Shown here: positions 11,071 through 58,932 of the stretch, in pieces
Layout of the letters: each line of letters begins with the position of its first letter
Position numbering within the stretch: the first letter of the stretch is position 1
IMG/VR virus record: IMGVR_UViG_3300021197_001635
Span: 64,001-128,000 of that record
Reading direction: 5' to 3' (one strand)
Source of the DNA: a virus
Length of the DNA: 64,000 bases
Program-made: the position numbers and the translations under genes
The notes under the pieces: generated by a model
What the model saw: the letters and a program-made list of their open reading frames with translations, nothing else
Told to the model about the DNA's origin: nothing
The model's database searches: none

Positions 11071-13008
11071 ATGATTGAGTTGCCGACACCCTACCAACAG
11101 TTCATCCATCTATCTAGATATAGTAGATGGTTAGATGAAGAAGGAAGAAGAGAGACTTGGAATGAGACTGTTAGTAGATATATGGGGTTCTTCAAGGAGC
11201 ACTTGGAGAAGACTCTGGGTTATAAGATGAGCGTAAATACCGAAAATACGGTTAAAAATGCTGTCCTCAATCTTGAAGTTATGCCCTCAATGCGATGTCT
11301 AATGACTGCTGGTGATGCATTAAAGAAAGATGCGGTTGCAGGATATAACTGTTCTTATCTGGCAATCAATAGAGTCAGAGCATTTGATGAAGTTCTTTAC
11401 GCCCTGATGTGTGGCACTGGTGTCGGTTTTTCTGTGGAGAGAGAGTATGTATCTAAACTACCCACTATTGCAGAAGAATTTGAAGAATCAGATTCTACTA
11501 TTGTTGTTCAAGATTCAAGAATTGGTTGGTGTAAGGCTTACAGGGAGCTTGTCTCCCTACTTATTACAGGTCGTGTACCAAGATGGGACCTGTCACGTGT
11601 GCGTCCTAGTGGGTCGAGACTTAAGACTTTCGGAGGAAGAAGTTCAGGACCAGAAAGTCTGGAAGATCTATTTAGATTCACGGTGGAAGTCTTTAAGAAA
11701 GCATCTGGCAGAAAACTCACGACTATTGAGTGTCACGATCTCGTATGCAAGATTGCAGAAATTGTAGTGGTTGGTGGTGTGAGACGTTCCGCACTCCTTA
11801 GCCTTTCATCCTTGACAGATGAGAGAATGAGAGATGCCAAGCAGGGACAATGGTGGGTGATTGAACCACAACGTGCATTATCCAACAATTCGGTATGTTA
11901 TAAGGAAAAGCCTGAGATTGGGACCTTCATAGAGGAGTGGTTGGCACTCTACAAGTCCAAATCAGGTGAAAGGGGCATCTTTAATAGAGACTCTGCCAAG
12001 ACCACGGTGTCTAAAATCCAAGGTGGAAGAAGAGATCCCGATCATGACTTCGGTACTAATCCTTGCTCCGAGATTATACTTAGAGACAGAGAATTCTGTA
12101 ATTTGTCAGAAGTGGTTGCAAGAGGAGATGACACGGTAGAGACTCTTAAGGAGAAGGTAAGACTTGCGGCAATCATAGGCACATGGCAGTCTACATTAAC
12201 CGACTTTAGGTATCTATCGGCAGAATGGAAGAAGAATTGTGAAGAGGAAAGACTCTTGGGTGTTTCTATCACGGGAATCATGGATTCTGTTCTTCTTAAT
12301 GGAGACAAGAAAACACTTGCTGCATTGCCTGGGCTACTAGAAGAATTAAGAGATATTGCAGTTAAGACCAATAAGGAGTGGGCATCTAGACTAGGTATCA
12401 ATCCCTCTGCTGCTATCACCTGTGTTAAGCCTTCTGGTACTGTTTCTCAGTTGGTGGATTCTGCATCTGGTATTCATGCTAGACATAATCCATACTATAT
12501 TAGAACTGTGCGTGCTAACGTTAAGGACCCGTTATGCAAATTCATGCAGGACAAGGGGTTCCCTTGTGAACCCTGCCACATGAAGCCTGATACAACCATG
12601 GTGTTCTCATTCCCAGTAGAGTCTCCCAAAAAGGCAATATTCAGACAGGATAAATCAGCCATCGAGCAGTTAGACTTATGGTTATTGTACCAAAAGCACT
12701 GGTGTGAACACAAGCCTTCTATCACGGTTTCGGTCATGGAGGGAGAATGGTTGGACGTTGGCACTTGGGTCTATAATAATTTCGACGATGTATGTGGGGT
12801 ATCATTCCTGCCATTTAGCGATCACTCATATAAGCAAGCACCTTATCAGGACTGTTCCAAAGAAGAATACAAGGTCTTGCTTAAGGAAATGCCCAAGGAT
12901 ATTGATTGGGATGAATTGTGTGCATACGAGAAGGAAGATAACACGGCTGGCAGCCAGACGCTAGCATGCTCTGGGACGTCATGCGAGGTGGTTGACCTGA
13001 CCCCATAA
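11071..13008 (+). CDS. nrdJ: Class II (B12-dependent) monomeric ribonucleotide reductase
   Basis: MPSMR, GVRRSA, TNPCSEI, CNLSE, TCVKPSGTVS, EHKPSIT, C-terminal ACSGTSCE. Confidence 0.93.
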   Translation: MIELPTPYQQFIHLSRYSRWLDEEGRRETWNETVSRYMGFFKEHLEKTLGYKMSVNTENTVKNAVLNLEVMPSMRCLMTAGDALKKDAVAGYNCSYLAINRVRAFDEVLYALMCGTGVGFSVEREYVSKLPTIAEEFEESDSTIVVQDSRIGWCKAYRELVSLLITGRVPRWDLSRVRPSGSRLKTFGGRSSGPESLEDLFRFTVEVFKKASGRKLTTIECHDLVCKIAEIVVVGGVRRSALLSLSSLTDERMRDAKQGQWWVIEPQRALSNNSVCYKEKPEIGTFIEEWLALYKSKSGERGIFNRDSAKTTVSKIQGGRRDPDHDFGTNPCSEIILRDREFCNLSEVVARGDDTVETLKEKVRLAAIIGTWQSTLTDFRYLSAEWKKNCEEERLLGVSITGIMDSVLLNGDKKTLAALPGLLEELRDIAVKTNKEWASRLGINPSAAITCVKPSGTVSQLVDSASGIHARHNPYYIRTVRANVKDPLCKFMQDKGFPCEPCHMKPDTTMVFSFPVESPKKAIFRQDKSAIEQLDLWLLYQKHWCEHKPSITVSVMEGEWLDVGTWVYNNFDDVCGVSFLPFSDHSYKQAPYQDCSKEEYKVLLKEMPKDIDWDELCAYEKEDNTAGSQTLACSGTSCEVVDLTP

Positions 13009-13348: not shown

Positions 13349-14518
13349 ATGAATATTTCAAAGAAAAAGTGGATGATGTACGGTGGTATTGCCGCTGCTA
13401 TTCTAATCGCTTCGGTCGCGGTTGCTGATGGACCTTCATATGAAGACCTTCAGGCCCGTCTAGACGCAGCAGAGGCAAAGATCGCACAGATTGATTCCGA
13501 CCGTGCTCCAAGCTGGTTGGAAAGCAGACGTAGTGAAGAAGTTCAATCGCTAGTGCAAGATGTCCTTGCCGATGCAGAAGCACGAACGATGATGCAGGGA
13601 GACAATTCCCCAGTCACCGTTAATCTTCATGGATTTGCCATCACCCGTTGGGATTACAACAATGGTGGTGGTGTGGCAAGAAATAATGAATTCAGCATTC
13701 CATATGCTCGACTTGAAGTCTCAGGAGAGATCCTAGGCAAGGTTGGGTACTATGTCAGTGGTGAATTCAGTGACTACACGAATGGCAGCATGGATCTTGT
13801 CGACGCCTACCTCACAATGGATGTGGGTCTGGGAGTGGACATGATGGCTGGTCAGTTCGTGACTGCATTCTACCGAGGTTTCACTGATTCACCATTGGAT
13901 CAGATCGCGGGAGAGTACAGTATTCTTGCTACCACTTTTGGTCAAGGACGATCGCAGGGCCTTCAATTCACCAAAGATTTTGGTTGGTTGGATCTCTCTG
14001 CCTCTTATAACGACGGTTTCGACACCAGCAATTCATTCATGATGGACAATGACTATGGTGTCAGTGTTCGTGGTGATGTGGATTTTGGTGCTGGATTCCG
14101 TGCAGGTGCAGCCTATGCTTATCAGTCAGAACTTGAAGACTACGGTACTTACACCGTGGACTTCGGATATTCTACCGATAAGCTAGATGCACAGGTCTCA
14201 TGGGTTTCTGCCGACTATGCTGTCGGTGGATACAGTGACAACTATGGCTTCAACGCTAGTGTTGCTTATCGTTGTGCTGCCGACTTTACTGGTTTTGTTA
14301 ATTATCAATGGGGCAAGCTAGGAGTTGCTTCAGAAGATCTTAACGTGCTAGAAATCGGTGCTAACTACGATATCAACGAATACGTTCGTTGGACCACCAC
14401 CTTGGGTTATGCATTTGATGCTGTAGCCCCAGAGTGGAATACCGCTCGTTCTGGATGGAACAGCGGTTCGGAGAATGGTCAGTATCTACTGCGTACACAA
14501 CTCAGTGTAAGCTTCTGA
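13349..14518 (+). CDS. Outer-membrane beta-barrel porin (OprO/P-like, Planctomycete type)
   Basis: Signal peptide, coiled coil WLESRRSEEVQSLVQDVLADA, amphipathic beta-strands, C-terminal Phe (RTQLSVSF). Confidence 0.85.
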   Translation: MNISKKKWMMYGGIAAAILIASVAVADGPSYEDLQARLDAAEAKIAQIDSDRAPSWLESRRSEEVQSLVQDVLADAEARTMMQGDNSPVTVNLHGFAITRWDYNNGGGVARNNEFSIPYARLEVSGEILGKVGYYVSGEFSDYTNGSMDLVDAYLTMDVGLGVDMMAGQFVTAFYRGFTDSPLDQIAGEYSILATTFGQGRSQGLQFTKDFGWLDLSASYNDGFDTSNSFMMDNDYGVSVRGDVDFGAGFRAGAAYAYQSELEDYGTYTVDFGYSTDKLDAQVSWVSADYAVGGYSDNYGFNASVAYRCAADFTGFVNYQWGKLGVASEDLNVLEIGANYDINEYVRWTTTLGYAFDAVAPEWNTARSGWNSGSENGQYLLRTQLSVSF

Positions 14519-14771: not shown

Positions 14772-17039
14772 ATGGAAAAAACCGCTTTGAATACCAATCG
14801 TGACTCTAAGGATATCCTCGCTCGACTGCTGGCGACCGAGAATATCTGTGTCGAACACCAACCAGTACCAACAGCATACTTCGATACAGTCGAACGTCGA
14901 CTGGTCCTCCCAGTCTGGGAAAATATGGATAATGACCTTTACGACATGCTCGTTGGTCATGAAGTTGGTCATGCACTGTTCACCCCACATGGCAACGACT
15001 ACACCAAGGCCGCAATCGAGCGAATCGATGCTGCTGCGCCTGATAGTCGAGTCATGCCATACCTGAATGTGGTCGAAGATGTCCGCATCGAGAAGGCAAT
15101 CAAGGACAAGTTCCCAGGCCTTCGTCGCAATTTCATCAAGGCATACAAGGGCCTTGTTGACAGTGACTTCTTTGGAATCGCTGACAAGAATATCGATGAA
15201 ATGTCGCTCATCGATCGAGTTAATGTACACTACAAGGTGGGCAACCACGTGGAAGTGGCATTTTCTTCCGAGGAGCAGGTCATCGTCGATCAGATCGATC
15301 AGGTCACCACATGGGATGAGATGGTCGATGCCGCTGACGCATTGTACTCGCTCGCCAAAGAGCAGAAGCAGCAAGAGAAGCAGCAGGATCCTGATGATCA
15401 GGAAGAGTCTGCTTCTGCTGGTGACCACATGGACAACGAAGGTCAGTCCAGTTCTGCTGCCGATGAGGGCGACCAGTCCGACCAGACCGAGAACACCGAT
15501 GGTGAAGGTGGAGAGCAGGGTGGTGAAGAGCAGGGTGATGACTCTGGTGACTCGATGGACGATGATACCGACGATGGTGAGTCTGCTGATAGTCAGATGT
15601 CTGACAGCAGCAGCGATTCTCAGGATGGTGGAAATCAGACAGTCGACCAGATGGTTGATATGTCAGATCTTCCTGATGAATGTGAGACACAGAAGTCGAT
15701 GGAGAATGCCATCGAGAAGATGACCGATCAGATTGATGACCGTCGTCGAGTCTATATCACAATGCCCAAGCCTGACCTCGATGCGATCGTCATTCCAGTG
15801 GGCAAGGTGATGGATGACTTCCGCAAGCACCTTGCTCGTGACCGATACGATAGTTATCGCGATGACTATCTTTCCGCTTGCTACAACATCTTCACCTCCT
15901 TCCAGAAGGATGTGTCCAAGACCGTCAACAAGATGGCACAGCAGTTCGAGATGAAGAAAGCAGCAGACCAGTACAAGAGACGTGCAGTTACCGATTCTGG
16001 TGTGCTCGACACAATCAAGATGGTGAACTACCGATGGTCAGATGACGTGTTCCTGAAGAATACAGTCGTCCCTGGCGCTAAGAGTCACGGCATGATCATG
16101 TTCATCGACTGGAGTGGTTCGATGACTGATAAGATGTCCGATACCCTCAAGCAGTTGATGACTCTGATCATGTTCTGCAAGAAGGTCAACATCCCATACG
16201 ATGTCTATGCCTTCACGAGCAGCTACGTAGAAGATCCTGACCGCTGCTCCGCTACCAGCCGCAGCTACAAGGAAGGAGATGGTTTGATTGGTGACCTCCG
16301 CCTTCTCAATCTCATGTCTTCCTCGATGAAGAATCGCGATTGGACAGAGATGATGACTTACATGACCATGCTCACCAATGCATATGCTAACACTAACGAC
16401 AAGCACTTCACCACTTCATATCGGGTGGTCCCACAGGGTTACCATCTGGGTTGCACACCTCTTGACGATGCAATCGTCTGTGCTGCTGCAGTTGCCAAGG
16501 ATTTCAAGAATACGTACAATACTCAGATTGTCAACACCATCTTCTTGACTGACGGTTGTACCTCCAGTAGTCCTCTTTCTGGTTATTATAGCGGTGCGAA
16601 GCATTACAAGAACGGCCAGATGATCCATATTGATGGCATCGCTGTCCTCCGTGGCAAGCATGGCAAGATCTTCAACAATCACAAGACCACGACAGACAAT
16701 CTGCTTGAATGGTTCACAGCAGAGACTGGTATCCCAGTGCTGGGCATCTACGTTTGCCGCGACCGAGAGCTATACTACCTCTGCAATGAAGTCACCGATG
16801 AGATGTACACGAAGTTCAAGGCAGAAAAGAGCCTGGTGCTTGAGAATAGCGGTGGTTACAAGTCATTGTACGTGATGAATTCGACGAACACCAAGAAGGT
16901 CAAAGGCATCGATGATCTTTCTGGAGTAGTCAAGCCCGTGATGGTCAAGAATGCCATGGTCCGCGAGGCAAAGGCACGTAAGGCACAGCAGCGGATCATG
17001 GACACATTTGTCGCTAATATCTCCAAGGAGACAGTTTGA
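14772..17039 (+). CDS. CobT-like protein: HExxH metallopeptidase-like domain, acidic linker, VWA domain
   Basis: HEVGH, NVVEDVRIE, D/E/S-rich linker, MIDAS DWSGSM, LTDG. Confidence 0.85.
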   Translation: MEKTALNTNRDSKDILARLLATENICVEHQPVPTAYFDTVERRLVLPVWENMDNDLYDMLVGHEVGHALFTPHGNDYTKAAIERIDAAAPDSRVMPYLNVVEDVRIEKAIKDKFPGLRRNFIKAYKGLVDSDFFGIADKNIDEMSLIDRVNVHYKVGNHVEVAFSSEEQVIVDQIDQVTTWDEMVDAADALYSLAKEQKQQEKQQDPDDQEESASAGDHMDNEGQSSSAADEGDQSDQTENTDGEGGEQGGEEQGDDSGDSMDDDTDDGESADSQMSDSSSDSQDGGNQTVDQMVDMSDLPDECETQKSMENAIEKMTDQIDDRRRVYITMPKPDLDAIVIPVGKVMDDFRKHLARDRYDSYRDDYLSACYNIFTSFQKDVSKTVNKMAQQFEMKKAADQYKRRAVTDSGVLDTIKMVNYRWSDDVFLKNTVVPGAKSHGMIMFIDWSGSMTDKMSDTLKQLMTLIMFCKKVNIPYDVYAFTSSYVEDPDRCSATSRSYKEGDGLIGDLRLLNLMSSSMKNRDWTEMMTYMTMLTNAYANTNDKHFTTSYRVVPQGYHLGCTPLDDAIVCAAAVAKDFKNTYNTQIVNTIFLTDGCTSSSPLSGYYSGAKHYKNGQMIHIDGIAVLRGKHGKIFNNHKTTTDNLLEWFTAETGIPVLGIYVCRDRELYYLCNEVTDEMYTKFKAEKSLVLENSGGYKSLYVMNSTNTKKVKGIDDLSGVVKPVMVKNAMVREAKARKAQQRIMDTFVANISKETV

Positions 17040-17533
17040 TGGATCTTTTCGAAAGAGCATTAGTAGTCATAGTTTTTTCCTTTATGACTTGGTTCGCCAT
17101 AGCCTCCACTGCGTATGCGGTGGAGGTGGGCGACATCAAAAAGCAGAATAAGTCCCTTCGCAAGCTGCTCGACGCAATTTGTGAGGTGGAATCAGGCTGC
17201 GATTCTTCCGCAGTTGGTGATAATGGAAAAGCCATCGGTGCTTATCAGATTTGGGAGAGTTATTGGATCGATGCCTGCAATTATAGCAGGAACGACGACT
17301 TGAGTCTTGACGACGGTTATGAAAGTTGCCTAGATAAGGAATACGCAGAGAAAGTAGTGTTGACTTATTGGGAACGATATGCCAACGAGAAAAGACTTGG
17401 ACGCAAACCAACACTCGAAGACAGAGCACGAATGCACAATGGTGGACCTCGTGCTGTATGGGCGAAGGGCAAGAAGAAGGAGAATCTTGACCTGTATTGG
17501 GAGAAGGTAAGTGAGGTACTTAACGGAGGCTGA
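17036..17533 (+). CDS. Lysozyme with invertebrate-type/destabilase motifs and N-terminal TM/signal
   Basis: ICEVESGC, YQIWESYWIDA, ARMHNGGP. Confidence 0.75.
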   Translation: MMDLFERALVVIVFSFMTWFAIASTAYAVEVGDIKKQNKSLRKLLDAICEVESGCDSSAVGDNGKAIGAYQIWESYWIDACNYSRNDDLSLDDGYESCLDKEYAEKVVLTYWERYANEKRLGRKPTLEDRARMHNGGPRAVWAKGKKKENLDLYWEKVSEVLNGG

Positions 17534-18385: not shown

Positions 18386-18769
18386 ATGTCAATCAGCATT
18401 ACAAATAGATTTCTGAAGTACGCCGATACTGCCCTTGGGATATCGAGAGAGATATGTCGTTCCAAAAGGCATGTGAGTCTCATAACCACCAAGAAGGGTT
18501 CTGTGCTCGCATGCGGGACGAACCAGTTCCGAACGCATCCTCTGGCAAAGCAATATGGCTATCGATACGATGAGGTACATTCAGAATTGGATGCCCTCCT
18601 GAAGCTACCCAAGGGTGCTGATAGGAACGACCTCGTTCTCCTCAATTTTCGATTTAATAGATTCGGAGATATGAGGATCAGCAAGCCATGTTGTCTTTGT
18701 CTACCTTGGTGCAGGGTGGTATTCAGTGACATTTTTTATAGCACCGATGAAGGAATGATGAGGCTATGA
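18386..18769 (+). CDS. Cytidine/dCMP deaminase-fold Zn protein
   Basis: HSE..KPCCLC. Confidence 0.75.
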   Translation: MSISITNRFLKYADTALGISREICRSKRHVSLITTKKGSVLACGTNQFRTHPLAKQYGYRYDEVHSELDALLKLPKGADRNDLVLLNFRFNRFGDMRISKPCCLCLPWCRVVFSDIFYSTDEGMMRL

Positions 18770-19251
18770 ATATTTTTGCAGTACATAAAGATCCTAAGAT
18801 CTCAGCACGTATGCTTTGTGACAAGCACATCTGCAAGATGATCCTAGAGTCGGTGCAGATGCTATGCACTGCGTTTCCTGATGGTGACGCACCAAAGACT
18901 TGCGGTGCTAGCCATGTTAATCATCCTTGCTCACGTTGGGCAAGAGAGACATCCAGCAACTATGATTGGTTGTCTGAGCATGTCATCACCCTGTGTGATG
19001 AATATACTAAGCGGTATGGCAAGGTCCATGCTTGGGATGATGCGGTTAAATGGTTGTATGATAACAACCCTCTCCCCAAGGGAGACATTACCCAACACCC
19101 CCAATGCATGCCTGCCTACTGTAAGGTAGATGGAGACCCCATCGAGGCATACCGAAATTATTATGTCCACGAGAAAGCCTACATGGCAAAGTGGAAGAAC
19201 AGTGATACTCCTAGGTGGTATCTCACCGCAATCGAGGAAGTGAAGAAGTGA
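18766..19251 (+). CDS. Pyrimidine-dimer DNA glycosylase (DenV-like family)
   Basis: MNIF..CDKHICKMILESVQML, NHPCSRW, EYTKRYGKVH, AYRNYY. Confidence 0.75.
   Translation: MNIFAVHKDPKISARMLCDKHICKMILESVQMLCTAFPDGDAPKTCGASHVNHPCSRWARETSSNYDWLSEHVITLCDEYTKRYGKVHAWDDAVKWLYDNNPLPKGDITQHPQCMPAYCKVDGDPIEAYRNYYVHEKAYMAKWKNSDTPRWYLTAIEEVKK

Positions 19252-20192: not shown

Positions 20193-20215
<23 letters not shown>
19934..20215 (+). CDS. Hypothetical protein
   Basis: GAGG RBS; overlaps the guaB start. Confidence 0.55.
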
Positions 20216-22296
<2,081 letters not shown>

Positions 22297-43733: not shown

Positions 43734-43856
43734 TTACAATACTGATTTCCCTATCATCACCCCTATCACGAAACCCATCACAACTGTGATCATGCCCGCT
43801 GGGGTTTGAATCAATTCCATTTTTCTAGATACCCAATATACTATTTCTTCTTTCAT
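43734..43856 (-). CDS. 40-aa membrane peptide
   Basis: MKEEIVYW..GMITVVMGFVIGVMIGKSVL; GAGG RBS. Confidence 0.45.
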   Translation of the reverse strand: MKEEIVYWVSRKMELIQTPAGMITVVMGFVIGVMIGKSVL

Positions 43857-44586
43857 TCTTAATTTCCTCTTCGATCCAATCATAGACAATATCTACTCTA
43901 GTAGCAGAGTTTTCATAAATCATGTCTTTATACATGCTAAATGCGGATATAATACCTACGACGTAAAAGTCGCCGTCAATAAGCATAAACAATGGTCCAC
44001 CCGAGTCTCCGAACCATACAGAGCCTCCTATGGGAAGCATCTTAAGGTTGGTAGGTTCGCTTTCTAGTGTGCCGTAATAGAAAAGGGTGTCTAGTTTGCT
44101 TCTCTTTTTGAACCCTCTGGAATATCCGACAGATACTATTGGTGTGCCCTTCATGGTATCAACCAGCGATTTGGAGTTAATATTGGAAGGTCTTATCCCA
44201 CGCACATAGGTGTCTAGGAATATAATAGCCACGTCGTGTTCTATTTTCAAAAATGCACTATACTCAGGATGCTTTAGGGAGCACTTAATACTATACAACT
44301 CGTCCCCGAATTGTACAAAAGACTCATCATTCCTGATGCAGTGGGCAGCAGTTAATACCACGTCTTCTTCAATCAGCACTACGGAACATTTAGGACGCAA
44401 GTCGTCATCCAATAATCTACCCACTGATGGGAATTCGCCCTCAGATATGGTGACAAACCCTTCTACATTGGGTGTTACTTCTATTTTTGGTGGGGGTGGA
44501 CTTTCTGTCTTGGGTGGAACCACTTTAGTGGCACACCCTGCTGCACATAACAAAATAGCTGATAGATGAACTATCTTTCTTAACAT
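43825..44586 (-). CDS. Trypsin-like (S1) serine protease lipoprotein
   Basis: Lipobox AAGC, Pro linker, LTAAHC, HDVAII, GDSGGP. Confidence 0.9.
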   Translation of the reverse strand: MLRKIVHLSAILLCAAGCATKVVPPKTESPPPPKIEVTPNVEGFVTISEGEFPSVGRLLDDDLRPKCSVVLIEEDVVLTAAHCIRNDESFVQFGDELYSIKCSLKHPEYSAFLKIEHDVAIIFLDTYVRGIRPSNINSKSLVDTMKGTPIVSVGYSRGFKKRSKLDTLFYYGTLESEPTNLKMLPIGGSVWFGDSGGPLFMLIDGDFYVVGIISAFSMYKDMIYENSATRVDIVYDWIEEEIKNERRNSILGI

Positions 44587-44753: not shown

Positions 44754-44782
44754 TTGACAGATAGGCTAGCCTGTGGTACAAT
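44754..44782 (+). promoter_or_regulatory. Sigma70-type early promoter
   Basis: TTGACA-17-TACAAT. Confidence 0.85.
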
Positions 44783-44832
44783 GGGTTATAAGGTTGGGGA
44801 TCGTCCCACCCATTTCAGGAGATATGCCCAAT

Positions 44833-46203
44833 ATGGCAACAAAGCAATCAATCAAGGCACGCGAAGACTTCATCAAGGCGATGAAGGATGCGGGTCTTTC
44901 TGGCATCGTGACCAGAAGTCAGATCAAGGATCTTTGCAAGAGCACTGGCATCTATGCCTGTCCTCCTTCTTGGATCTCACAGGACCATTCTCGCCGAACT
45001 GGTGTTGTCGGTGAATACATCATGCCAGAGCTTGATGATGCCCCAGCACCAAAGGCAGCACCAGTTGCCACTGCCACTGCCACCATCCCCAGTGGAGAGG
45101 TGAAGACTGCAGACACCTGCAGTGCTACTATGGCACTCGCCATGACTGGTGGTGCAAGTGAGTCCCTCGTGCCCGATAAGATCGACACCTACGTCCAGTG
45201 GGGTCACTTCAAGGACATCGAGACGATCATTCGCACCAAGATGTTCTACCCTTGCTTCATCACTGGTCTCTCTGGCAACGGCAAGACCACCATGGTCGAT
45301 CAGGTCTGTGCGAAGCTCAGACGCGAGCTGTTCCGAGTGAATATCACCACGCAGACTGATGAAGATGATCTGCTGGGTGGGTTCCGCCTCATCAATGGCG
45401 AGACCATCTGGACTGATGGTCCCGTGGTCAGAGCGATGAAGCAGGGTGGGATTCTTCTTCTGGACGAGATCGACCTTGCGTCACATGCGATCATGTGTCT
45501 CCAGCCTGTGCTGGAAGGCAAGGGTGTCTTCCTCAAGAAGATTGGTCAGTGGGTCAAGCCCGCGCCTGGTTTCCAGATTTTCGCTACTGCCAATACCAAG
45601 GGCAAGGGTAGCGACGACGGTCGATTCATTGGTACGAATGTCCTCAATGAGGCATTCCTTGACCGATTCTCCGTGTGCTACGAGCAGGAATATGCTCCGA
45701 AGTCCACCGAGCAGAAGATCCTCACCAAGGCGATGCAGTCGCTCGGCTGCGAGGACAAGGAGTTCACCAAGAATCTGGTTACTTGGGCAGATATGATCCG
45801 CAAGTGCTACTATGAAGATGCGGTTGATGAGATCATCACTACTCGACGCCTGGTCAATGTCGCTACGGCATTCTCCATCTTTGGTGATCGTGCCAAGGCA
45901 ATCGAAATGGCAGTCACCCGATTTGATGACTCCACCAAGGAAGCCTTCCTCACGATGTATGGCAAGATTGATGCCAAGGTGGACATGTCGGATGCTGAAG
46001 ATCAGCCTGATCCCAGCACTGCTGTCCGATTTAACCTCAGTTGCAGCTACGACGACAAGGATGAGGCTAAGCGTGCGGGTGCTCAGTGGGATAAGAAGAC
46101 CAAGACTTGGTGGATCACTGGGGACGAGTACAGGAATAATCCCACGACATGGGACAAGTGGAGTCCAGCCCCAGTTGCTGACCTCCAAGAATGCCCGTTC
46201 TGA
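44833..46203 (+). CDS. cobS: CobS/MoxR-type AAA+ ATPase with C-terminal DUF5710-like domain
   Basis: GLSGNGKT, TDEDDLLGG, LLDEID, TANTKGKG, LNEAFLDRF, TTRRLV; YDDKDEAKRAGAQWD..WW. Confidence 0.9.
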   Translation: MATKQSIKAREDFIKAMKDAGLSGIVTRSQIKDLCKSTGIYACPPSWISQDHSRRTGVVGEYIMPELDDAPAPKAAPVATATATIPSGEVKTADTCSATMALAMTGGASESLVPDKIDTYVQWGHFKDIETIIRTKMFYPCFITGLSGNGKTTMVDQVCAKLRRELFRVNITTQTDEDDLLGGFRLINGETIWTDGPVVRAMKQGGILLLDEIDLASHAIMCLQPVLEGKGVFLKKIGQWVKPAPGFQIFATANTKGKGSDDGRFIGTNVLNEAFLDRFSVCYEQEYAPKSTEQKILTKAMQSLGCEDKEFTKNLVTWADMIRKCYYEDAVDEIITTRRLVNVATAFSIFGDRAKAIEMAVTRFDDSTKEAFLTMYGKIDAKVDMSDAEDQPDPSTAVRFNLSCSYDDKDEAKRAGAQWDKKTKTWWITGDEYRNNPTTWDKWSPAPVADLQECPF

Positions 46204-49501: not shown

Positions 49502-49530
49502 TTGACAGAATAGATAGTCTGTGGTATAAT
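49502..49530 (+). promoter_or_regulatory. Sigma70-type early promoter
   Basis: TTGACA-17-TATAAT. Confidence 0.85.
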
Positions 49531-50278: not shown

Positions 50279-50307
50279 TTGACAGAAGATCCAAGCCATG
50301 GTATAAT
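50279..50307 (+). promoter_or_regulatory. Sigma70-type early promoter
   Basis: TTGACA-17-TATAAT. Confidence 0.85.
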
Positions 50308-51546: not shown

Positions 51547-52620
51547 ATGATTGAATCTGGTAAAGTGAATTTTCTAATCGATGGTCAGTGGGGAAGCACT
51601 GGCAAGGGCAAACTTGCTGGTTACATGTACAGCAAGCATGACAACCTGAGAATGGCAATTAGCGATAATATGCCAAATGCGGGTCACACCTTCACAAGAG
51701 ACGGCAAGAATTTCATCTTCAAGGCACTTCCCACTGGTGTTCTTTTCGATAATGTGACGTCGCTCATCGGTCCACAAGCAGTAATGGGCGAAGAACAGTT
51801 CCAATACGAGATGGAAATGGTGAAAAACGAAATCGGTCATTACCCCAAGGTAATTATCCACCCGATGGCGACGGTTGTCACCGCCAGTGACAAAGATGCT
51901 GAGGCAGGAATCGTCAGCAAGATGGCAAGCACTGGTCAGGGATCATGTTCTGCTACAGTTAAGAAGATGTGGAGACGAGGAGAGGCAAATCTTGCCAAGA
52001 ACAGCAAGGTATTCGGAGAGTACGTAGGAGATACGCACAATTTCTTGCATATGGGACTTAAGAAAGGTGATGCAGCACTTTCAGAAGGCAGTCAAGGTTT
52101 TGATCTTTCTATGAACTGCGGACACGCCTATCCACACACCACATCACGCGATTGCCTGATCGGCAGAATGATGGACAATGCTGGTTGTCCAGTTAAATCA
52201 GTGGGCAGCATCATCGCTTGTCTGAGGACACTGCCAATCCGAGTGGGTAGCACTGAGAACACCAGTGGTCCTTATTATGATGATCAGAACGAGATAGACT
52301 GGAAGATGGTATCTGAAATGTGCGGTCAAGACGTAGAAGAGAGAACCACAGTCACCCAGAGAGTGCGTAGGGTCTTCACCTTCTCCGAAGAGCAGACCAG
52401 AAAATTCTGCGAGTATGTACGTCCAGACTATGCATTCCTGAACTTCGTCAATTATTACAAGGACGAGCAGGAGAGAACGTCAGCAGTAGAATCTGTTGCC
52501 TCCATCTTGACAGAGTATGGTTGTGATCTTACACTGCTTGGGACAGGTGCAGAACTGGAGGATATGGTAGTCACCGATAATGAAACCATCCTCAACAAGC
52601 AGGAAACCTTATTCGCATGA
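51547..52620 (+). CDS. purZ: PurZ-like synthetase (adenylosuccinate synthetase paralog, 2-aminoadenine pathway)
   Basis: QWGSTGKG instead of PurA QWGDEGKG; PNAGHT; RTLPIRV; SGPYYDDQNEIDW; TTVTQRVRRVFTFS; FLNFVNY instead of TKLD; 357 aa. Confidence 0.8.
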   Translation: MIESGKVNFLIDGQWGSTGKGKLAGYMYSKHDNLRMAISDNMPNAGHTFTRDGKNFIFKALPTGVLFDNVTSLIGPQAVMGEEQFQYEMEMVKNEIGHYPKVIIHPMATVVTASDKDAEAGIVSKMASTGQGSCSATVKKMWRRGEANLAKNSKVFGEYVGDTHNFLHMGLKKGDAALSEGSQGFDLSMNCGHAYPHTTSRDCLIGRMMDNAGCPVKSVGSIIACLRTLPIRVGSTENTSGPYYDDQNEIDWKMVSEMCGQDVEERTTVTQRVRRVFTFSEEQTRKFCEYVRPDYAFLNFVNYYKDEQERTSAVESVASILTEYGCDLTLLGTGAELEDMVVTDNETILNKQETLFA

Positions 52621-53174
52621 TAATTAACTGTGTAATAGGTCAGGCTGGAAGTGGAAAATCTACCTTCATAGGACAGAAATTCCCTAGGGACCAGTACATT
52701 TTCTTTGATGTGGGTGACATCCTGAGAGGGATGTTTACCTGCTTCAAGGGCAATCAGGGCAATAAGAATGTCTGGAGCTTTGCTAACCCGTTGGTGTATA
52801 GCATTATGAAGAAGTGCGTCAGCATCTCTTCTAAGACCAATTACCCAGTTGTATTTGATGGATTTCCCAGAAATTCCACTCAAGTCAGGCATCTCCACCG
52901 ATACCTTACCTCCCCTAGATTGGGGAAGGTGGAGGTGCTGGTTCATTGTTTAGACATAAATATGGATGAGCAAATGTCCAGAATTGAGAAACGGAATGGT
53001 GGTCTAGACGAATATCAGATCAAGAGGATCAAGCAGTCTAGGAACGATTTTGAGGGTGTCATAGAAGAAGTAGAGAAACTGATGCTAGACTCCCGAAACC
53101 ATCCAGTATCCTATAAATGCATGTGGTACAAACAGGTAGATGATGGATTCACACTAGAACAACCTAGGAGATAG
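52617..53174 (+). CDS. Adenylate-kinase-family NMP kinase
   Basis: GQAGSGKST, VGDILR, DGFPRNSTQ; ATGA overlap with purZ. Confidence 0.8.
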   Translation: MIINCVIGQAGSGKSTFIGQKFPRDQYIFFDVGDILRGMFTCFKGNQGNKNVWSFANPLVYSIMKKCVSISSKTNYPVVFDGFPRNSTQVRHLHRYLTSPRLGKVEVLVHCLDINMDEQMSRIEKRNGGLDEYQIKRIKQSRNDFEGVIEEVEKLMLDSRNHPVSYKCMWYKQVDDGFTLEQPRR

Positions 53175-53176
53175 AA

Positions 53177-53731
53177 ATGGCATCATTTAATATAGAAATA
53201 CCCGATGAATATCTAGGTGGTGGTGAAGATTTCGGTTTCACCACCGTCGATGCTGATGTTTTCGAGCAGCAGAACCAGCAAGAAAGAGAAGTAGCAGAAG
53301 AAGTTGCTGGTGAGATTTCTTCCAGTCTTACCAATCAGATCAATTCTAAGATGAGCATCTTAGAGGGAAAGATAAATGCTGTCTTATCCAGACTGGAAGA
53401 TAGCACTGGGGAAGATGCCATAGATTCATCCATAGACGTGAATAGGATCGAAGACAAAATAGATAAGATCCTAGCTATGGAGAACACTGAACTCGCACAG
53501 TCGATACAAGACCAAGGTGCAAGTATACGTGCTGTAATCGATGAGGTAGAAGAGAGAAAGAACCAACTAGAGACTCTGCATGCAGAGAAAATGATAGATC
53601 TAGAGAAACTGGTATTACCTCTGCTCATTAACCTCACTAAGAATCCAGAGAAAGAATACCTATACTGGCCTGATAGAGTTAGTAAAGTTCAAGATCAGAT
53701 CAAGAGGGTTCTGGAAGTAACCAGAGGGTAA
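53177..53731 (+). CDS. Conserved T4-like coiled-coil hypothetical protein
   Basis: DFGFTTVD..PLLINLTKNPEKEYLYWPDR. Confidence 0.7.
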   Translation: MASFNIEIPDEYLGGGEDFGFTTVDADVFEQQNQQEREVAEEVAGEISSSLTNQINSKMSILEGKINAVLSRLEDSTGEDAIDSSIDVNRIEDKIDKILAMENTELAQSIQDQGASIRAVIDEVEERKNQLETLHAEKMIDLEKLVLPLLINLTKNPEKEYLYWPDRVSKVQDQIKRVLEVTRG

Positions 53732-53737
53732 TAAGTC

Positions 53738-54409
53738 ATGCGTGAATTATTTGAACATGTGGGTCTTCCAGACCAACTGATGGGAACCGATTTGGGTGTT
53801 ACCAACAAGAGCGGTAAGAGGTTCTATAAGGCGCCTGGTGGTGAACTACTGCCTAGCGTAACCACTGTGACTGGATGGGAGAAAAGACAATTTTTCGCAG
53901 AGTGGAGAAGGAAAAATCCGCAAGAGTCGAAGAGGGTTCTGTCTCAAGGAACTTCGCTGCATAAAGTGATTGAAGACTATCTTAATAATGATGCTGATTA
54001 TATGGGCAATGCTAAACCCAAAGTAATGAATCTATTTAACTACATCAAGCCTTTGCTTCATAAAATCAAGAAGATAAGAGCACAAGAAGTGGCATTGTGG
54101 AGCACCAAGATAGGTCTAGCAGGTAGGGTAGACTGCATTGCTGAATATGACGGAAAACTGTCTGTCATAGACTTCAAGAGTAGCAAAAGAGAGAAGAAAG
54201 TAGAATATATTGATAACTACTTCGCTCAGGCTACTGCATACTCTCTAATGTGGCAAGAAATCACTGGTATACCGATTGAGCAGATAGTAATACTGATATC
54301 TAGCGAAGACGGTACTATACAAGAATTCACGGATAAACCGATAAGCCATGTTGCAAGACTTAAAGAGATGATCGATGCCTACAACTTGGACTGTGGTGTC
54401 ACCTTGTAG
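53738..54409 (+). CDS. PD-(D/E)xK (Cas4/lambda-exo-like) exonuclease
   Basis: PSVTTV, GTSLH, AGRVDCIAE, IDFKSS, YFAQATAY. Confidence 0.88.
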   Translation: MRELFEHVGLPDQLMGTDLGVTNKSGKRFYKAPGGELLPSVTTVTGWEKRQFFAEWRRKNPQESKRVLSQGTSLHKVIEDYLNNDADYMGNAKPKVMNLFNYIKPLLHKIKKIRAQEVALWSTKIGLAGRVDCIAEYDGKLSVIDFKSSKREKKVEYIDNYFAQATAYSLMWQEITGIPIEQIVILISSEDGTIQEFTDKPISHVARLKEMIDAYNLDCGVTL

Positions 54410-57400
54410 GTAGTCGTGTCGGCAGCGGTAGATCCAGGATTTAAGTATACCGCTTTGCCCTTTCTCTTGGGGACCGTGCCAGTGAACTTGCTGGGGGGAT
54501 TGGGGTTGGTATGATCGGTGAAGCTAGCAGCAGTAGTGATCGTTGTATCACTTGAAGCACCATCGGTATTCTTCTGGAGGATCTTGACATTAGCACCAGT
54601 GGTTGTTACTATGAGTCTGCCATCAGTCCTGAAGGATCTACCGTCTTCAAAGCAATTACTATCAAAGACACTAGTACCAAATGTGAACCCGTCTCCAGTT
54701 CCACTAGAAGCGGTGATCAAACATATATCTCCAGAGGGACCCCTAGCAACTCCTTGTTTCAGATATACACCCCCAGTTCCACCAGTCCATCCAGCAGTGC
54801 CCGTGTGTTCATTGACATATACCTCAATTAAACCGCGATGCCCTCCGCTTGACCCTATAGCTCTCGCTAAATTAGAGGCTCTATTCTTTGCACTAAGCAA
54901 ACTGCTGGTGGCATTAGTGCCCCTTCCGAACATGACGGGTATCGCAAATCCTACGACAGTGGCATGTGCTGATGTCACTCCAGAAGCAGATCCAGATATA
55001 CCACTCATATTATAACCACCGACACCATCTCCAGTTATGCTCTGGGTCAGTTTTATTGCCGATTTGTTGACGAAGTTTGCAGGATCATGATCTGCAGTAA
55101 TACTAAGATGTCCATTTATCGTGGCGAGTTCAATGGCGTTGTAGATATTGGTAGCCATCTGGTCATTGGTGAAAGTACCACCAGCAACAAATGCATAAGA
55201 ATTAACACCCAGTATGGGCATACCTGCACTACACGTCGCTCCAGTTCCACCAGTGGGACCAGCATCTGCTGATCTGCCCCCATCCCCTGTGAAGGTAATA
55301 GTTCTGGGACCCGAAAAACCTTGACCATTATATAGATTGTAATTATCTGTAATAATGAGGGTCTTCTTGCCCCAATTACCCACACTGGCATTAGTACCAC
55401 CACTGGCTTGATTCAATATAACATCTATATAGGCTGATGCGGTTGTTCCGAATGGTTCACCAGTGTTTAGATAACCTCCGCTGAAACCAGTCGCTCCATA
55501 ACCCCCATACTCTATTGATAGTAGACCTGAGGATAGGGTAGCACCTATTGGGGTATTACCCTTCGCACCTAGATTTCTACTTTGGATCAGTTCCACATAT
55601 GAAGTCACACCAGCTGGATCAGTTGCGGACAGGGAGATATCTTTATTAACGATTGCCATGCTGATCGCATCGAAGATACTGTCTGCTATCCCAGTAGGAC
55701 CTGAAGCACCATAGGTAGAAAATGCATATGCGTTGGGACCTAAAACTGGCATCCCCACCCCAGCAGAAGCACCAGTGCCTCCAGTTGCGGATGTAATGAT
55801 TCCACTTGAATAGAATCTGATGCTGCCAGTAGAACCAGTGTTACCGTCACTCAATGAGAACGAAACTAATCCACCAGTGGGTCCTTTCCACTCAGGGTCT
55901 GCTCCACCGTGGAATCCGAATGCTGATCCCTTAGAGGGCGCAATATTAGATGAAAAACTAGTGGAGTCATACTCGCTGAATCTAGCACCACTTATTCCTC
56001 TATTACCCTCTTGCCCTTTAACTACTTGGGCTAGATTTATAGTATAGGGGTTGGCAAACGTGGTGGTTATATTCAGGTCTCTATCTGCTATTGCTAGGGC
56101 TAATGCTTCACCTATTCTGGTTGCCACCCCAGCAGTGCCCAAGTTATGGGATCCAGATGATACAATCCCTCCAGTAAATGCTGTTGGTCCAGCACTACCA
56201 TTGAAATCTTGAGATATGGGGGTATCACCAGCAGTGCCCAAAATGGTTTGTGTTAGTATCAGTGCTCCTAATCCCCCAGTAGGACCACCCTCTGTTCCTG
56301 CAGTTGTCCCTGCTTCTACAGATATGCTGCCGCTGTGACCCCCAGTGCCCACTGCATCTGAAGAATCTGTTCCTCTGATTGCTTTCACCAAAGATGCCAC
56401 TGCAGATGCCGAACTTCCAGATGATGCTATGAACTTGTTCGTGATGAAATCTTGGAATGTAGCACCAGTATAGGTAATCCCGAATCCACTAGCATTGATG
56501 AGATGAAGGGTATCTCCAACAGTCGGTCCAGTTCCCCCAATAGTGAGGGTGGCGGCTGCAAACCTTTCAGAGGCTAAATCTCCCTGTATTCCGATCACAT
56601 ATCTTTTATGTCCAGATATGGTGGATGTGGGAGTAGATGAATCGAAATGGAAGGCAACTTCATTGCTGGAAGTGCCACCTCCAGAGAAGTTAGCACTATA
56701 AGTTATTCCTTGTGCGGTTGATCCACTGTCAGATATTGTTGTATTACCAACATTACCAGCTGTGGCTTGGGTCAGCAAAATTCCATATCCCCCAATGCCA
56801 CCAGTGATGGAAGAGTCGTAAGACAACGCGGAGCTTGTGCTACCGCTATTGCTAATAACTGTATTACCTTGGAAACCCACTGTTTCTTGTTCCAGATAGA
56901 TATTATAACTTCCAGTGGTTCCTACAATGCTTCCCTTCTGGGATGCTTTTATATCCAACTGGGTCATAGTATTAATACTTCTGGTCACCACTCCAGCTAT
57001 ACCGCTAGCGGTCAACCCCCCTATGGGCATGGTAGCGCCCATTACTCCGTGGGTCAGACCTGAACTAGCACCAGCATTAAAGGTGAACGTTATCCCAACA
57101 CCCGCAGAGTCTAATAAGTGGAATGTTCTATTACCAACTGTATCTGAAGAAGCACCTGAATTAATTGCTATTATGCCCTCAGCAGCGATCGCACCAGAGA
57201 CAGCAGAGGAGGTAGCACCTATATTGAGTGAAGTTAGGTTGATACCAGCTACTATATTGTCCCTAATCTTGCTAGAATTTAGACCGTCAACACCTATGGT
57301 CATGCCAGGCGCAGTCGATACCGATCCGTTGAAGGTGAATGTGAGTCCAGTCCCAGTATCATCTATTAGATGGAATGTCCTATTGGCAAGATTGACCTCA

Positions 57401-58932
57401 GCACCAGTCTGCCCAACCACTATTGTAGCAGTAGCCCTAGAGGGACCAGCATCCCTTAACACTAGATCAGATCCACCCCAATTTCCTTCTGCAGAAACTG
57501 CTGTGGAATCCAATTTTCCATTGCCTTCATTGATGATTAGTTGTGCGGTAGCACCAGTCCCAGCACTGTTATTTCCAACCAGAACCGATAATTTTGCATT
57601 AGCGGTTGTGCCATCATCCTTGGCGATATATACCTTGGATGTACCCTCAATTGAGTTGATACCTATCACAGAATTATCAGGCATATAACCAGTTGAACCT
57701 GTATGCATATTGAAAGTTAAACCAGCATTTAACAATACCCTATTATGTCCGTTCCTAGAATTGATAGCACTTTTTAAGTGACCAGCAGCGAGTATTGCCT
57801 TAGCCCCAGCATCCGAGCCACCACTGCCGTCTTGGAATACCACGTTTGTGCCACTTAGATCACCATCGGCAGCCGCACCATCTGCTACTGCTTTATATGT
57901 GACATCCGTTCCATCAGTAGATATCATCCTTATTGTACCATTCACCTCGGCAGCATTATCGAACGCGAATTCCGATGATGATCTAGCAGCAAAGTTCGGT
58001 TGTCCTCTATATTTAACTATCAGTTTGGGTCGATCAGTAGGTTCGGTAGCATTCACACTGTGGAACACATGAGCATTAAAATATTCACCAGCAGTTAGGT
58101 CTTGGTCTCTAACGATCATGAATCTACAGACGGATTGCTCGTTGGCAACAGCATGCTGAACCAAAGGAGTCACATCTATATTTAATTCAGAAACCCCATC
58201 TATACTTCCAGGATCATTAGAAATGCTATCTCCGAAAGAGGCTGTGACAAATAATGGGTTGTTGAAGTGTTGGGACGGACCAGCCTGCACATAGTCGTTT
58301 GCACCAGTTCCTTCTGTAGTCCAAGGTACACCTGATATTGAGTCAAACGCTTTCCAGAAATACCAGTCCATCTGCTTGATATCTGCTAGTTCGTTTGCAG
58401 ACCCATCTGCATTGGTAGTAATACCCGATATATCATGGTTAAGCAGGTAAACCTTTGCGCCATACTCTCTGGTCGTAACGCTTTGCTGTCTTCCAAATCC
58501 AAATATGTTTTTTATTTTCAACCTCAAAATGGCATTATCTATCTCAGTATCTGTGCGGAATTCTGGTAAACCGTCTGCCTCAGTGTTGGAGAGAGCAGTA
58601 TTCATATCAACTACTACCACACCCCTGCTAATCTGGGCACTATAGGAAGGCTCTAGATAGCAAGTACTAAGAGCATCACCAAATTTCCATTGACCAACCG
58701 TGAATTTTGCAAGATCCCATCTATCATTCTCCGACACAGGTGGTTCTTCACCAGCCCCATCCCACCACAAATGGCTGCAATATTCATCCCTTAGATAGGG
58801 TATAGAGGTATCCTCTTCAACATCTAAGACAACATTGTATTCCCGCGTTTGATCACGAGAAACACCACCTAAGACAGTATTCTGTCTGCCAGTTAATCTA
58901 TGCCTGGCTTTTTCACTCATGTAGCAATCCAC
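54379..58932 (-). CDS. Large Gly/Thr/Ser-rich virion fibre/decoration protein with DNRLRE-like N-terminal domain
   Basis: AILRLK..PWTTEG..IDVTPLVQ..FHSVNA..RPKLIVKY; internal repeats NRTFHL, MPxLGxNxYAF, LTQ..GxxGNT; start likely 58920. Confidence 0.7.
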   Translation of the reverse strand: MDCYMSEKARHRLTGRQNTVLGGVSRDQTREYNVVLDVEEDTSIPYLRDEYCSHLWWDGAGEEPPVSENDRWDLAKFTVGQWKFGDALSTCYLEPSYSAQISRGVVVVDMNTALSNTEADGLPEFRTDTEIDNAILRLKIKNIFGFGRQQSVTTREYGAKVYLLNHDISGITTNADGSANELADIKQMDWYFWKAFDSISGVPWTTEGTGANDYVQAGPSQHFNNPLFVTASFGDSISNDPGSIDGVSELNIDVTPLVQHAVANEQSVCRFMIVRDQDLTAGEYFNAHVFHSVNATEPTDRPKLIVKYRGQPNFAARSSSEFAFDNAAEVNGTIRMISTDGTDVTYKAVADGAAADGDLSGTNVVFQDGSGGSDAGAKAILAAGHLKSAINSRNGHNRVLLNAGLTFNMHTGSTGYMPDNSVIGINSIEGTSKVYIAKDDGTTANAKLSVLVGNNSAGTGATAQLIINEGNGKLDSTAVSAEGNWGGSDLVLRDAGPSRATATIVVGQTGAEVNLANRTFHLIDDTGTGLTFTFNGSVSTAPGMTIGVDGLNSSKIRDNIVAGINLTSLNIGATSSAVSGAIAAEGIIAINSGASSDTVGNRTFHLLDSAGVGITFTFNAGASSGLTHGVMGATMPIGGLTASGIAGVVTRSINTMTQLDIKASQKGSIVGTTGSYNIYLEQETVGFQGNTVISNSGSTSSALSYDSSITGGIGGYGILLTQATAGNVGNTTISDSGSTAQGITYSANFSGGGTSSNEVAFHFDSSTPTSTISGHKRYVIGIQGDLASERFAAATLTIGGTGPTVGDTLHLINASGFGITYTGATFQDFITNKFIASSGSSASAVASLVKAIRGTDSSDAVGTGGHSGSISVEAGTTAGTEGGPTGGLGALILTQTILGTAGDTPISQDFNGSAGPTAFTGGIVSSGSHNLGTAGVATRIGEALALAIADRDLNITTTFANPYTINLAQVVKGQEGNRGISGARFSEYDSTSFSSNIAPSKGSAFGFHGGADPEWKGPTGGLVSFSLSDGNTGSTGSIRFYSSGIITSATGGTGASAGVGMPVLGPNAYAFSTYGASGPTGIADSIFDAISMAIVNKDISLSATDPAGVTSYVELIQSRNLGAKGNTPIGATLSSGLLSIEYGGYGATGFSGGYLNTGEPFGTTASAYIDVILNQASGGTNASVGNWGKKTLIITDNYNLYNGQGFSGPRTITFTGDGGRSADAGPTGGTGATCSAGMPILGVNSYAFVAGGTFTNDQMATNIYNAIELATINGHLSITADHDPANFVNKSAIKLTQSITGDGVGGYNMSGISGSASGVTSAHATVVGFAIPVMFGRGTNATSSLLSAKNRASNLARAIGSSGGHRGLIEVYVNEHTGTAGWTGGTGGVYLKQGVARGPSGDICLITASSGTGDGFTFGTSVFDSNCFEDGRSFRTDGRLIVTTTGANVKILQKNTDGASSDTTITTAASFTDHTNPNPPSKFTGTVPKRKGKAVYLNPGSTAADTTTYKVTPQSKL

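Follow-up and report, generated by a model that had tools for sequence, protein, structure and literature searches.

Phage genomes that carry 2-aminoadenine (Z) in the place of adenine are documented in small siphoviruses and podoviruses, which use a PolA-type DNA polymerase (DpoZ) or a PrimPol (PMC12884076; 10.1101/2025.10.22.683976). These phages are described as relying on the PurB and on a kinase of the host (PMC12884076), and this kinase is named as GMP kinase in the preprint 10.1101/2025.10.22.683976. PurZ, the synthase of the pathway, belongs to the PurA superfamily. In the PurA clade, the conservation of the catalytic Asp is reported as 99%, and Ser was found instead in 147 of 147 phage PurZ-group sequences (PMC12884076); the preprint lists 12 residues that separate the PurZ of dZ-modified contigs from PurA (10.1101/2025.10.22.683976). 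Most polymerases are stated to accept 2-amino-2′-deoxyadenosine triphosphate (dZTP), and the Z-cluster alone gave Z incorporation in E. coli (PMC8342488). In phage S-2L, where the polymerase is non-selective, DatZ is needed to keep adenine out, and PurZ can itself consume dATP (PMC8342488). Here, we describe a PurZ-type gene that overlaps a nucleoside monophosphate (NMP) kinase gene in a 64,000-nucleotide stretch of viral DNA, called the window throughout, which comes from a T4-like phage.

The window covers bases 64001–128000 of a 136,012-bp contig, G000 (IMG/VR record IMGVR_UViG_3300021197_001635), which we compared with two further large related contigs, G001 and G002. Gene positions are those of the window unless marked G000:C1. 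The first gene (51547–52620, + strand) encodes a 357-aa homologue of PurZ, the N6-succino-2-amino-2′-deoxyadenylate synthase, as judged from PHROG and NCBIfam matches, solved structures, residues and trees. The second (52617–53174, + strand) encodes a 185-aa NMP kinase of the adenylate-kinase fold, a candidate kinase for the monophosphate dZMP, recognized by its motifs, its AlphaFold 2 model and a Foldseek search. The ATGA overlap that the initial annotation had seen between them was found at 52617–52620, the kinase ATG occupying 52617–52619 and the purZ TGA 52618–52620. In the open-access literature searched, neither a myovirus with PurZ nor a dZMP kinase of phage origin was described; a phage kinase gene and a myovirus are likewise absent from the main text of PMC12884076 and 10.1101/2025.10.22.683976. 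The suggestion of a new lineage agrees with this, as no published description of such a lineage was found in that literature.

The gene pair had been assigned to a T4-like phage with a family-B polymerase and without DpoZ or PrimPol, and the gene content of the contig bore this out. The gp43-like family-B DNA polymerase (1939–4461, + strand; PF00136, 94.6 bits), 48–49% identical to cyanomyovirus gp43, was the sole DNA polymerase detected in the contig, and BLAST and local profiles gave no match to PolA or PrimPol in G000. The contig also encodes T4-like replication proteins (UvsX, gp41, gp32 and a UvsW-like helicase) and structural proteins (large terminase, sheath, portal, major head protein and baseplate proteins). 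Judged by these genes, the carrier, an uncultured marine phage, is T4-like with a family-B polymerase. At the DNA level, no phage contig close to G000 was present among 50,697 phage records. The Logan contigs of 12 public sequencing runs held 0.05–0.16 of the sampled words, and those of a 13th run next to none; no RNA run was among those listed.

The family searches consistently placed the first gene with PurZ. Its best PHROG match was family 1211 (PurZ; 8.3e-63), and the best-scoring NCBIfam model was NF038379 (PurZ), with 215 bits against 145 for archaeal-type PurA and 115 for bacterial purA. The best solved structure was phiVC8 PurZ (6fko; 2.3e-56), and S-2L PurZ (7ODX) matched at 2.5e-30. 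The 5k7x and 2d7u chains, which are deposited as adenylosuccinate synthetase and which we take to be Pyrococcus horikoshii PurA, matched at 2e-24.

We then aligned the window clade with six phage PurZ, three PurZ0-type proteins and E. coli PurA. The three signatures that the initial annotation had read as marks of PurZ, namely a Ser at the catalytic Asp13 position, NFxN in place of TKLD, and SGPxYxDQxE, were all present in the translated gene. The window protein has G16-S17-T18-G19-K20-G21 where E. coli PurA has G-D-E-G-K-G, and the Ser at the Asp13 site (S17) was present in 13/13 members of the window clade and in 42/42 rows of the sister clades. N299-F300-V301-N302-Y303 replaces T-K-L-D and is aligned to T331, K332 and D334 of E. 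coli PurA (numbering with Met). The resulting ATP-type pocket of F300, N302 and Y303 (F295, N297 and Y298 in phiVC8) occurs in all 13 clade members, whereas Lys and Asp stand at the corresponding places of E. coli PurA; at the N302 site, Asn is found as in the ATP-using PurZ, and Asp is found in PurZ0 and PurA. The third motif reads S240-G-P-Y-Y-D-D-Q-N-E249. The TTVT loop is kept within T267-T-V-T-Q-R272, where T267 is the equivalent of phiVC8 T262, and V233 provides the Val at the contact with C2′ of dGMP (phiVC8 V236). Nine of the 12 discriminating residues of the preprint are in the PurZ state (S17, I38, P230, Y244, W252, T267, T278, F300 and Y303), and these are kept in 13/13 clade members except T278, which is kept in 12. 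Among the remaining three, W15 is in the PurA state, S256 is in neither state and one falls in a gap.

A search of 5.8 billion proteins returned 954 relatives; 29 of them, at 68–96% identity, come from marine contigs, the longest of which reach 133 kb. The phylogenetic check against PurA, PurZ and PurZ0 was made with two quick maximum-likelihood IQ-TREE trees, rooted on E. coli PurA as the single PurA outgroup and leaving archaeal PurA out. A scan of genome contigs for archaeal PurA gave five bacterial or metagenome-assembled loci with PurZ-like genes and no archaeal PurA. In both trees the PurZ0-type proteins branch first, and the Ser-bearing ATP-type sequences form one group with 95–96% support in the Shimodaira–Hasegawa-like approximate likelihood ratio test. 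The window clade (100% support) lies inside this Ser-bearing PurZ group, apart from PurA and PurZ0, and is nested in a group of 34 rows (96%), the other members of which are from contigs with PolA, PurZ, the kinase and a dUTPase-like gene. The classical PurZ of DatZ-bearing clusters (phiVC8, S-2L, and Acinetobacter and Salmonella phages) appear in the second tree as a derived branch among lineages with the kinase. Because of its residues, the scores of the hidden Markov models and these trees, we class the first gene as a PurZ-type member of the PurA superfamily and not as an ordinary PurA. The most economical reading is that the T4-like lineage acquired the PurZ–kinase core from a PolA-type Z phage.

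Two other occurrences of PurZ-like genes were observed. The cultured Flavobacterium phage MaF61 (PQ858689.1; 167.8 kb), whose structural and replication genes are T4-like, has a gene (L013:8986–10329) for a 447-aa ‘adenosuccinate synthetase’ with Ser at the Asp13 site and an F/N/Y ATP-type pocket; the gene for this PurA/PurZ homologue is flanked by those for the prohead scaffold and the terminase. Possibly, MaF61 could serve as a laboratory handle for Z in large phages, but as a proxy only, since its homologue falls in another sub-branch. PurZ-like genes in the Sorangium sp. So ce131 chromosome (L024) and in a Chondromyces apiculatus contig (L025) group with MaF61 in the first tree.

The second gene was identified mainly by its motifs and predicted fold. 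The kinase has no PHROG family and no tblastn match in the phage records described above, and Pfam ADK gave 26.4 bits, just under its cut-off of 26.8; in NCBIfam, TIGR01351 adk gave 35 bits, and the adk models remained far below their cut-offs. The protein carries the P-loop, the G-x-x-L/I-R and the D-G-F-P-R-x-x-x-Q motifs of adenylate kinase, and 23 homologues show no variation at G13, K14, R37, P84, R85 and Q89. It is ∼26% identical to E. coli Adk over 96 residues, with R37, R85 and Q89 aligned to Adk R36, R88 and Q92. The AlphaFold model was predicted with high scores (predicted local distance difference test, pLDDT, 91; predicted template modelling score, pTM, 0.86), and Foldseek returned short adenylate kinases at the top (E ∼5e-7, TM ∼0.6) and also UMP/CMP kinases. 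A profile search with the kinase recovered 531 representative clusters at E ≤ 1e-10, including long proteins with several kinase-like stretches.

To what extent the kinase accompanies PurZ was counted in a set made up of the window contig and 71 IMG/VR loci that had been selected for PurZ similarity, taking as assessable those records with enough downstream DNA. The kinase was adjacent to PurZ in 10/10 records of the window clade, in 36/39 of the other non-classical records and in 3/17 on the classical side. The same three sets gave 0/10, 0/38 and 11/17 for DatZ, 0/10, 24/38 and 6/17 for Dut-like genes, and 0/10, 35/41 and 8/17 for PolA. Overall, adjacency was observed in 46/49 assessable non-classical records, the 10 of the window clade included. 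The kinase-bearing records of the classical side, two of the three of which are identical, include clusters with DatZ and MazZ. The kinase is a real and conserved partner of PurZ and a common one in uncultured PolA phages. The view that this phage owns a coupled kinase stands, with all 10 assessable relatives sharing it, but this phage is not alone in having the kinase, which is present in the sister records too.

Eight of the PurZ-adjacent kinases are much longer, and six of these eight carry a C-terminal dUTPase_2 domain, an all-alpha nucleoside triphosphate (NTP) pyrophosphatase domain (L052:11093–12235, L055:3271–4299, L056:11137–12690, L060:11131–12144, L061:11014–12153 and L062:8854–9825). 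These fused domains score 27–36 bits against the Pfam cut-off of 22.9 bits, and E86, E89, E112 and D115 are invariant in their alignment. We found no description of such a bifunctional architecture in Z-clusters in the literature searched. Of all the present evidence, the fusion of the kinase to a predicted pyrophosphatase beside PurZ speaks most strongly for a place of the kinase in the Z-nucleotide pathway. The gene identities, the active-site residues, their conservation, the gene linkage and the phylogeny all have direct support.

The counts above also bear on whether the pair might be what is left of a Z-cluster gained by horizontal transfer, now decaying or without function, since the PolA, Dut-like and DatZ partners were not acquired along with it (0/10 assessable records). 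Against this, both reading frames are intact in all 10 assessable relatives and the catalytic residues are invariant. Across the window clade, PurZ is 73–93% identical, and the ratio of nonsynonymous to synonymous rates (dN/dS) is ∼0.04 for purZ, where dS was not saturated, and 0.06–0.11 for the kinase. We consider a relic highly improbable and disfavour it.

With moderate confidence, and on the strength of the sequences, we favour a pathway in which enzymes of the phage produce first dZMP and then dZDP, and dZTP is used by the T4-type replisome of the phage for incorporation. The purZ and kinase genes would be the transplanted core of the Z nucleotide pathway in a T4-like phage. We infer every substrate, the order of the steps and the presence of Z in virion DNA, as follows. 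The PurZ-type enzyme would join dGMP and aspartate, using ATP or dATP, to give N6-succino-2-amino-dAMP, from which a phage PurB-like lyase would release dZMP. The coupled kinase would convert dZMP to dZDP and the nucleoside-diphosphate kinase of the host would form dZTP, which the family-B replisome would insert opposite T. Z is in this way probably put into the phage DNA by a route that has so far not been described.

The other purine genes of the contig fit into the same scheme. A PurB-like adenylosuccinate lyase is encoded outside the window (G000:C1:35846–37306), beside a Rad50-like gene; it scored 284 bits with TIGR00928 (cut-off 326) and matched human ADSL at 7.6e-97, and it is encoded in all three large contigs. 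PurB-like genes also occur in Streptomyces phages, of which the PurA-like protein (Hiyaa) falls with PurZ0 in both trees, and PurB-like matches were obtained in three Gordonia phage records. An IMP dehydrogenase (IMPDH) without the CBS subdomain (20193–21290, + strand; PF00478, 5e-125) gave 390.6 bits with TIGR01302 against ∼160–200 bits with the GMP reductase models, and has counterparts in G001 (98% identity) and G002 (60%). Overlapping it is an enzyme of the adenosine/adenine deaminase family (21238–22296, + strand; PF00962, 7e-92; NF006850, 556 bits, cut-off 419), which is present in G001 and not in G002. Among structures in the PDB, this deaminase matched the 3ou8/3pao group at 3.8e-128 and 3rys at 1e-112, as compared with ∼1e-33 for classical adenosine deaminases; we take 3ou8 and 3rys to be adenine deaminases, although the depositors named them adenosine deaminase. 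The deaminase-like enzyme and IMPDH may divert purines away from adenine and towards guanine compounds and so feed PurZ.

The same set of genes could instead be ordinary purine auxiliary genes that supply the IMP to AMP to ADP and the IMP to GMP branches of a phage with normal ATGC DNA. The PurA-like protein, the PurB-like lyase, the kinase and IMPDH make up exactly the two branches from IMP, and the kinase keeps the equivalents of Adk R36, R88 and Q92. However, the Ser in place of the catalytic Asp and the ATP-type rather than GTP-type pocket (F300, N302 and Y303) do not fit such a role, and the clade is nested among clusters with PolA, the kinase and Dut-like genes and not with PurA. An adenine-destroying deaminase beside IMPDH would also work against raising the level of adenine. 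We regard this alternative as quite unlikely.

Several observations nevertheless weigh against the Z pathway proposed here, and some of these, namely the score of the PurZ model, W15, R272 and the lack of a dATP-clearing enzyme, would also favour auxiliary genes. In spite of being the best family, NF038379 scored below its cut-off of 300 bits, and the narrow rooting of the trees described above is to be kept in mind. W15, at the site of phiVC8 F12, is in the state of E. coli PurA where the known PurZ have Phe or Tyr, and S256, H197, A127 and A335 differ from all six reference phage PurZ in the alignment. R272 aligns with Arg303 of E. coli PurA (R304 when Met is counted). The initial annotation had noted this retained Arg (TVTQR) as a caveat; the residue is indeed an Arg, but two of the six reference phage PurZ have Arg at the same position, three others having Leu and one Lys. 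In the kinase, the Gln that reads adenine in adenylate kinase is kept, and this is as compatible with AMP or dAMP as with dZMP.

A further point of this kind is the lack of the partner enzymes of the Z-clusters. The absence of DatZ from the window had been noted at the outset; the search was run on the rest of the genome for datZ and mazZ, and the absence extended to the whole 136-kb contig and to its two relatives. In G000, we found no match to the HD family, to MazG (PF03819) or to local DatZ and MazZ profiles, and tblastn with the phiVC8 and S-2L proteins returned nothing for Z-cluster partners. Neither HD_3 (DatZ) nor DUF550 (PF04447) was matched in contigs G000–G003, and neither NUDIX nor NDT in G000–G002; the C domain of GMP synthase was also not matched in G000–G002. 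Ten further small open reading frames (ORFs) gave nothing nucleotide-related by family search. No DutZ-type gene was found, and the phage dUTPase is of the canonical type.

Whether these absences are real depends on how complete the contig is. CheckV estimated 75% completeness for G000. From the comparison of gene order, G000, G001 and G002 are circular permutations of one ∼130–136-kb genome: the genes at the end (135593) and at the start (773) of G000 are ∼1 kb apart in G001 (98735 and 99788), and the two ends also adjoin in G002. As the ends are neighbours in both relatives, this synteny suggests that G000 is near-complete, that it probably lacks little or nothing and that the CheckV figure is an underestimate. 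The absence of DatZ- and MazZ-type genes, and of a dATP-clearing enzyme, is therefore probably real.

With a genome that is probably almost complete, the failure to detect a known dATP-clearing enzyme speaks against a full replacement of adenine, and the replacement may for this reason be partial, or may rely on an activity not yet known. It could be that dZ nucleotides are made but that adenine is only partially replaced from a mixed pool of dATP and dZTP, or that the nucleotides have another end use, such as disturbing host replication or transcription, or blunting restriction at a subset of sites. Such a use shares the evidence of PurZ, the lyase and the kinase with the pathway that we favour, and it accords with the absence of DatZ, MazZ, DutZ and NDT, with the need of the S-2L polymerase for DatZ to exclude adenine and with the sufficiency of the Z-cluster alone in E. 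coli (PMC8342488). On the other hand, the deaminase and IMPDH look like a deliberate adenine drain, S-2L PurZ can burn dATP (PMC8342488), and the many ORFs without a family leave room for an unknown dATPase. We consider partial or other use unlikely. Since most polymerases take dZTP and adenine exclusion in S-2L needs DatZ (PMC8342488), the replacement may lie anywhere between partial and full.

A bolder form of the proposed Z pathway is that the marine T4-like lineage replaces all or most of its adenine by Z, the adenine being drained rather than hydrolysed as dATP. The drain line would consist of the adenine deaminase, IMPDH, host steps to dGMP, PurZ, the phage PurB and the phage dZMP kinase, and the kinase, not described before, would have been the original core companion of PurZ in the majority of uncultured Z phages. 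We offer this only tentatively, as possible but on the doubtful side.

Two genes upstream of the polymerase gene were considered as the missing partners. The dUTPase (978–1556, + strand; PF00692, 1.2e-17), which has an N-terminal extension, keeps the full-length hairpin of E. coli Dut and passes the cut-off of the dut model (TIGR00576, 109 bits, cut-off 102.55), and was rejected as a DutZ for these reasons. In contrast, Ghobes gp55 and all 31 PurZ-linked Dut-like proteins of the other loci share a two-residue gap in the base-recognition hairpin, and it was gp55, and not gp53, that matched the Dut-like proteins of the sister lineages. A Dut-like enzyme of Ghobes is reported to hydrolyse dATP and dGTP (PMC12884076); the assayed enzyme would be gp55, and the gap may be the cause of its purine specificity.

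Overlapping both the dut and gp43 genes is an ORF for a 129-aa helical protein (1553–1942, + strand) resembling Nmad1/DUF1599. It gave 19.8 bits with DUF1599 (cut-off 25), and its AlphaFold 2 model (pLDDT 75.5) found nothing with Foldseek at E ≤ 0.001. The top seven VIA-align matches were all-alpha NTP pyrophosphatases with Z of 5.7–6.3, values within the chance range for helical folds, so that the model resembles MazG/HisE-type pyrophosphatases weakly. A profile–profile comparison with the dUTPase_2-like domains fused to the kinases gave a probability of 0.12%. Members of this family are common among marine T4-like phages, and were seen in Pelagibacter phage HTVC008M and in Methylophilales phage Melnitz. 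With DUF1599 below threshold, fold scores at chance level and homologues in marine T4-like phages without a PurZ match, we rejected it as the missing MazZ; it may be a weak candidate for an NTP pyrophosphatase, not specific to PurZ phages.

The sequence upstream of the gene pair has promoter-like elements. A perfect sigma-70-type match (TTGACA-17-TATAAT with TG; 12/12) at 50279–50307 (+ strand) precedes the operon-like run that ends in purZ and the kinase, and a second perfect match to the sigma-70 consensus lies at 49502–49530 (+ strand); the former is a consensus match and the latter a pattern match only. Directly downstream of the kinase are genes for a 184-aa acidic protein without a family (53177–53731, + strand) and a PD-(D/E)XK/Cas4-like exonuclease (53738–54409, + strand), which is kept after the kinase in the relatives. 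The end of the exonuclease gene overlaps the 3′ end of an ORF on the opposite strand for a 1517-aa Gly/Thr/Ser-rich product (54379–58932, − strand), probably a fibre-like structural protein.

Elsewhere in the window, ThyX (9644–10393, + strand) and a class II ribonucleotide reductase (11071–13008, + strand) were recognized by family searches, with a 190-aa ORF between them. Directly 5′ of thyX is a GlnII-type glutamine synthetase gene (8571–9647, + strand; NF041605, 403 bits, cut-off 500), which may feed glutamine to GMP synthesis or may be an unrelated auxiliary gene. The window further encodes a 389-aa porin-like protein (13349–14518; a weak match to phosphate-selective porin O/P, PF07396, 30.7 bits), a destabilase-type lysozyme (17036–17533, + strand), a DenV-like pyrimidine-dimer glycosylase (18766–19251, + strand), a trypsin-like protease (43825–44586, − strand) and a MoxR/AAA_5 ATPase with DUF5710 (44773–46203, + strand). 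The identities between G000 and G001 are mosaic (IMPDH 98%, porin-like ORF 97%, PurZ 92%, deaminase 67%, kinase 55%), which suggests a recent exchange of some genes between close relatives.

The initial picture of PurZ, a kinase and a family-B polymerase was right in these components and too narrow in omitting the PurB-like lyase, IMPDH and the adenine-deaminase-like enzyme. What is new here is the distribution of the kinase across the PurZ lineages, the kinase–pyrophosphatase fusions, the canonical nature of the phage dUTPase, the near-completeness of the genome and the residue-by-residue test of PurZ. If the proposed pathway is true, T4-type replisomes, the best-studied phage replication machines, would also copy Z-DNA, and adenine would be excludable by a logic other than dATP hydrolysis. 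There would be a dedicated phage dZMP kinase and with it a phage lyase, which could help to produce dZTP and Z-DNA inside cells. Z-DNA would also occur in abundant marine myoviruses, which bears on restriction evasion and on the reading of viromes. The linkage of the kinase to PurZ and the pyrophosphatase fusions stand independently of this and offer a testable enzyme.

Compared with the described systems, the window PurZ shares with those of phiVC8 and S-2L the fold and family (∼39–40% identity to phiVC8), the Ser at the Asp13 site, the TTVT loop, the Val near C2′ and the ATP-type F/N/Y pocket, and differs from them in W15, S256, H197, A127 and A335. The Z-clusters of phiVC8 and S-2L consist of PurZ, MazZ or DUF550, and DatZ, together with DpoZ or PrimPol, whereas DatZ, MazZ/DUF550 and PolA are all lacking here; unlike in those phages, the carrier is a 136-kb T4-like myovirus with PolB, the neighbouring gene is a kinase and the lyase is encoded by the phage. 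Arthrobacter phage Wayne and Gordonia phage Ghobes have PurZ0 systems, made up of PurZ0, DutZ and DmtZ, which are likewise described as a Z pathway without DatZ or MazZ (PMC12884076). The resemblance to the PurZ0 branch extends to the PurB-like lyase of the Streptomyces phages and to the hairpin gap that the Dut-like proteins of the sister lineages share with Ghobes gp55. However, PurZ0 splits first in the trees and has Asp at the N302 site, while the window dUTPase is canonical and an NDT-like gene was not found. The phage kinase has the same P-loop, Arg/Gln motifs and fold as the short AK1-like adenylate kinases and the UMP/CMP kinases, but unlike adenylate kinases it is tied to PurZ genomically, with a low identity and a sub-threshold Pfam ADK score. 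T4 gp1 is a deoxynucleoside-monophosphate kinase that phosphorylates a non-canonical base monophosphate for a T4-type replisome. The kinase described here would be alike in role, but it has the adenylate-kinase fold and is linked to PurZ.

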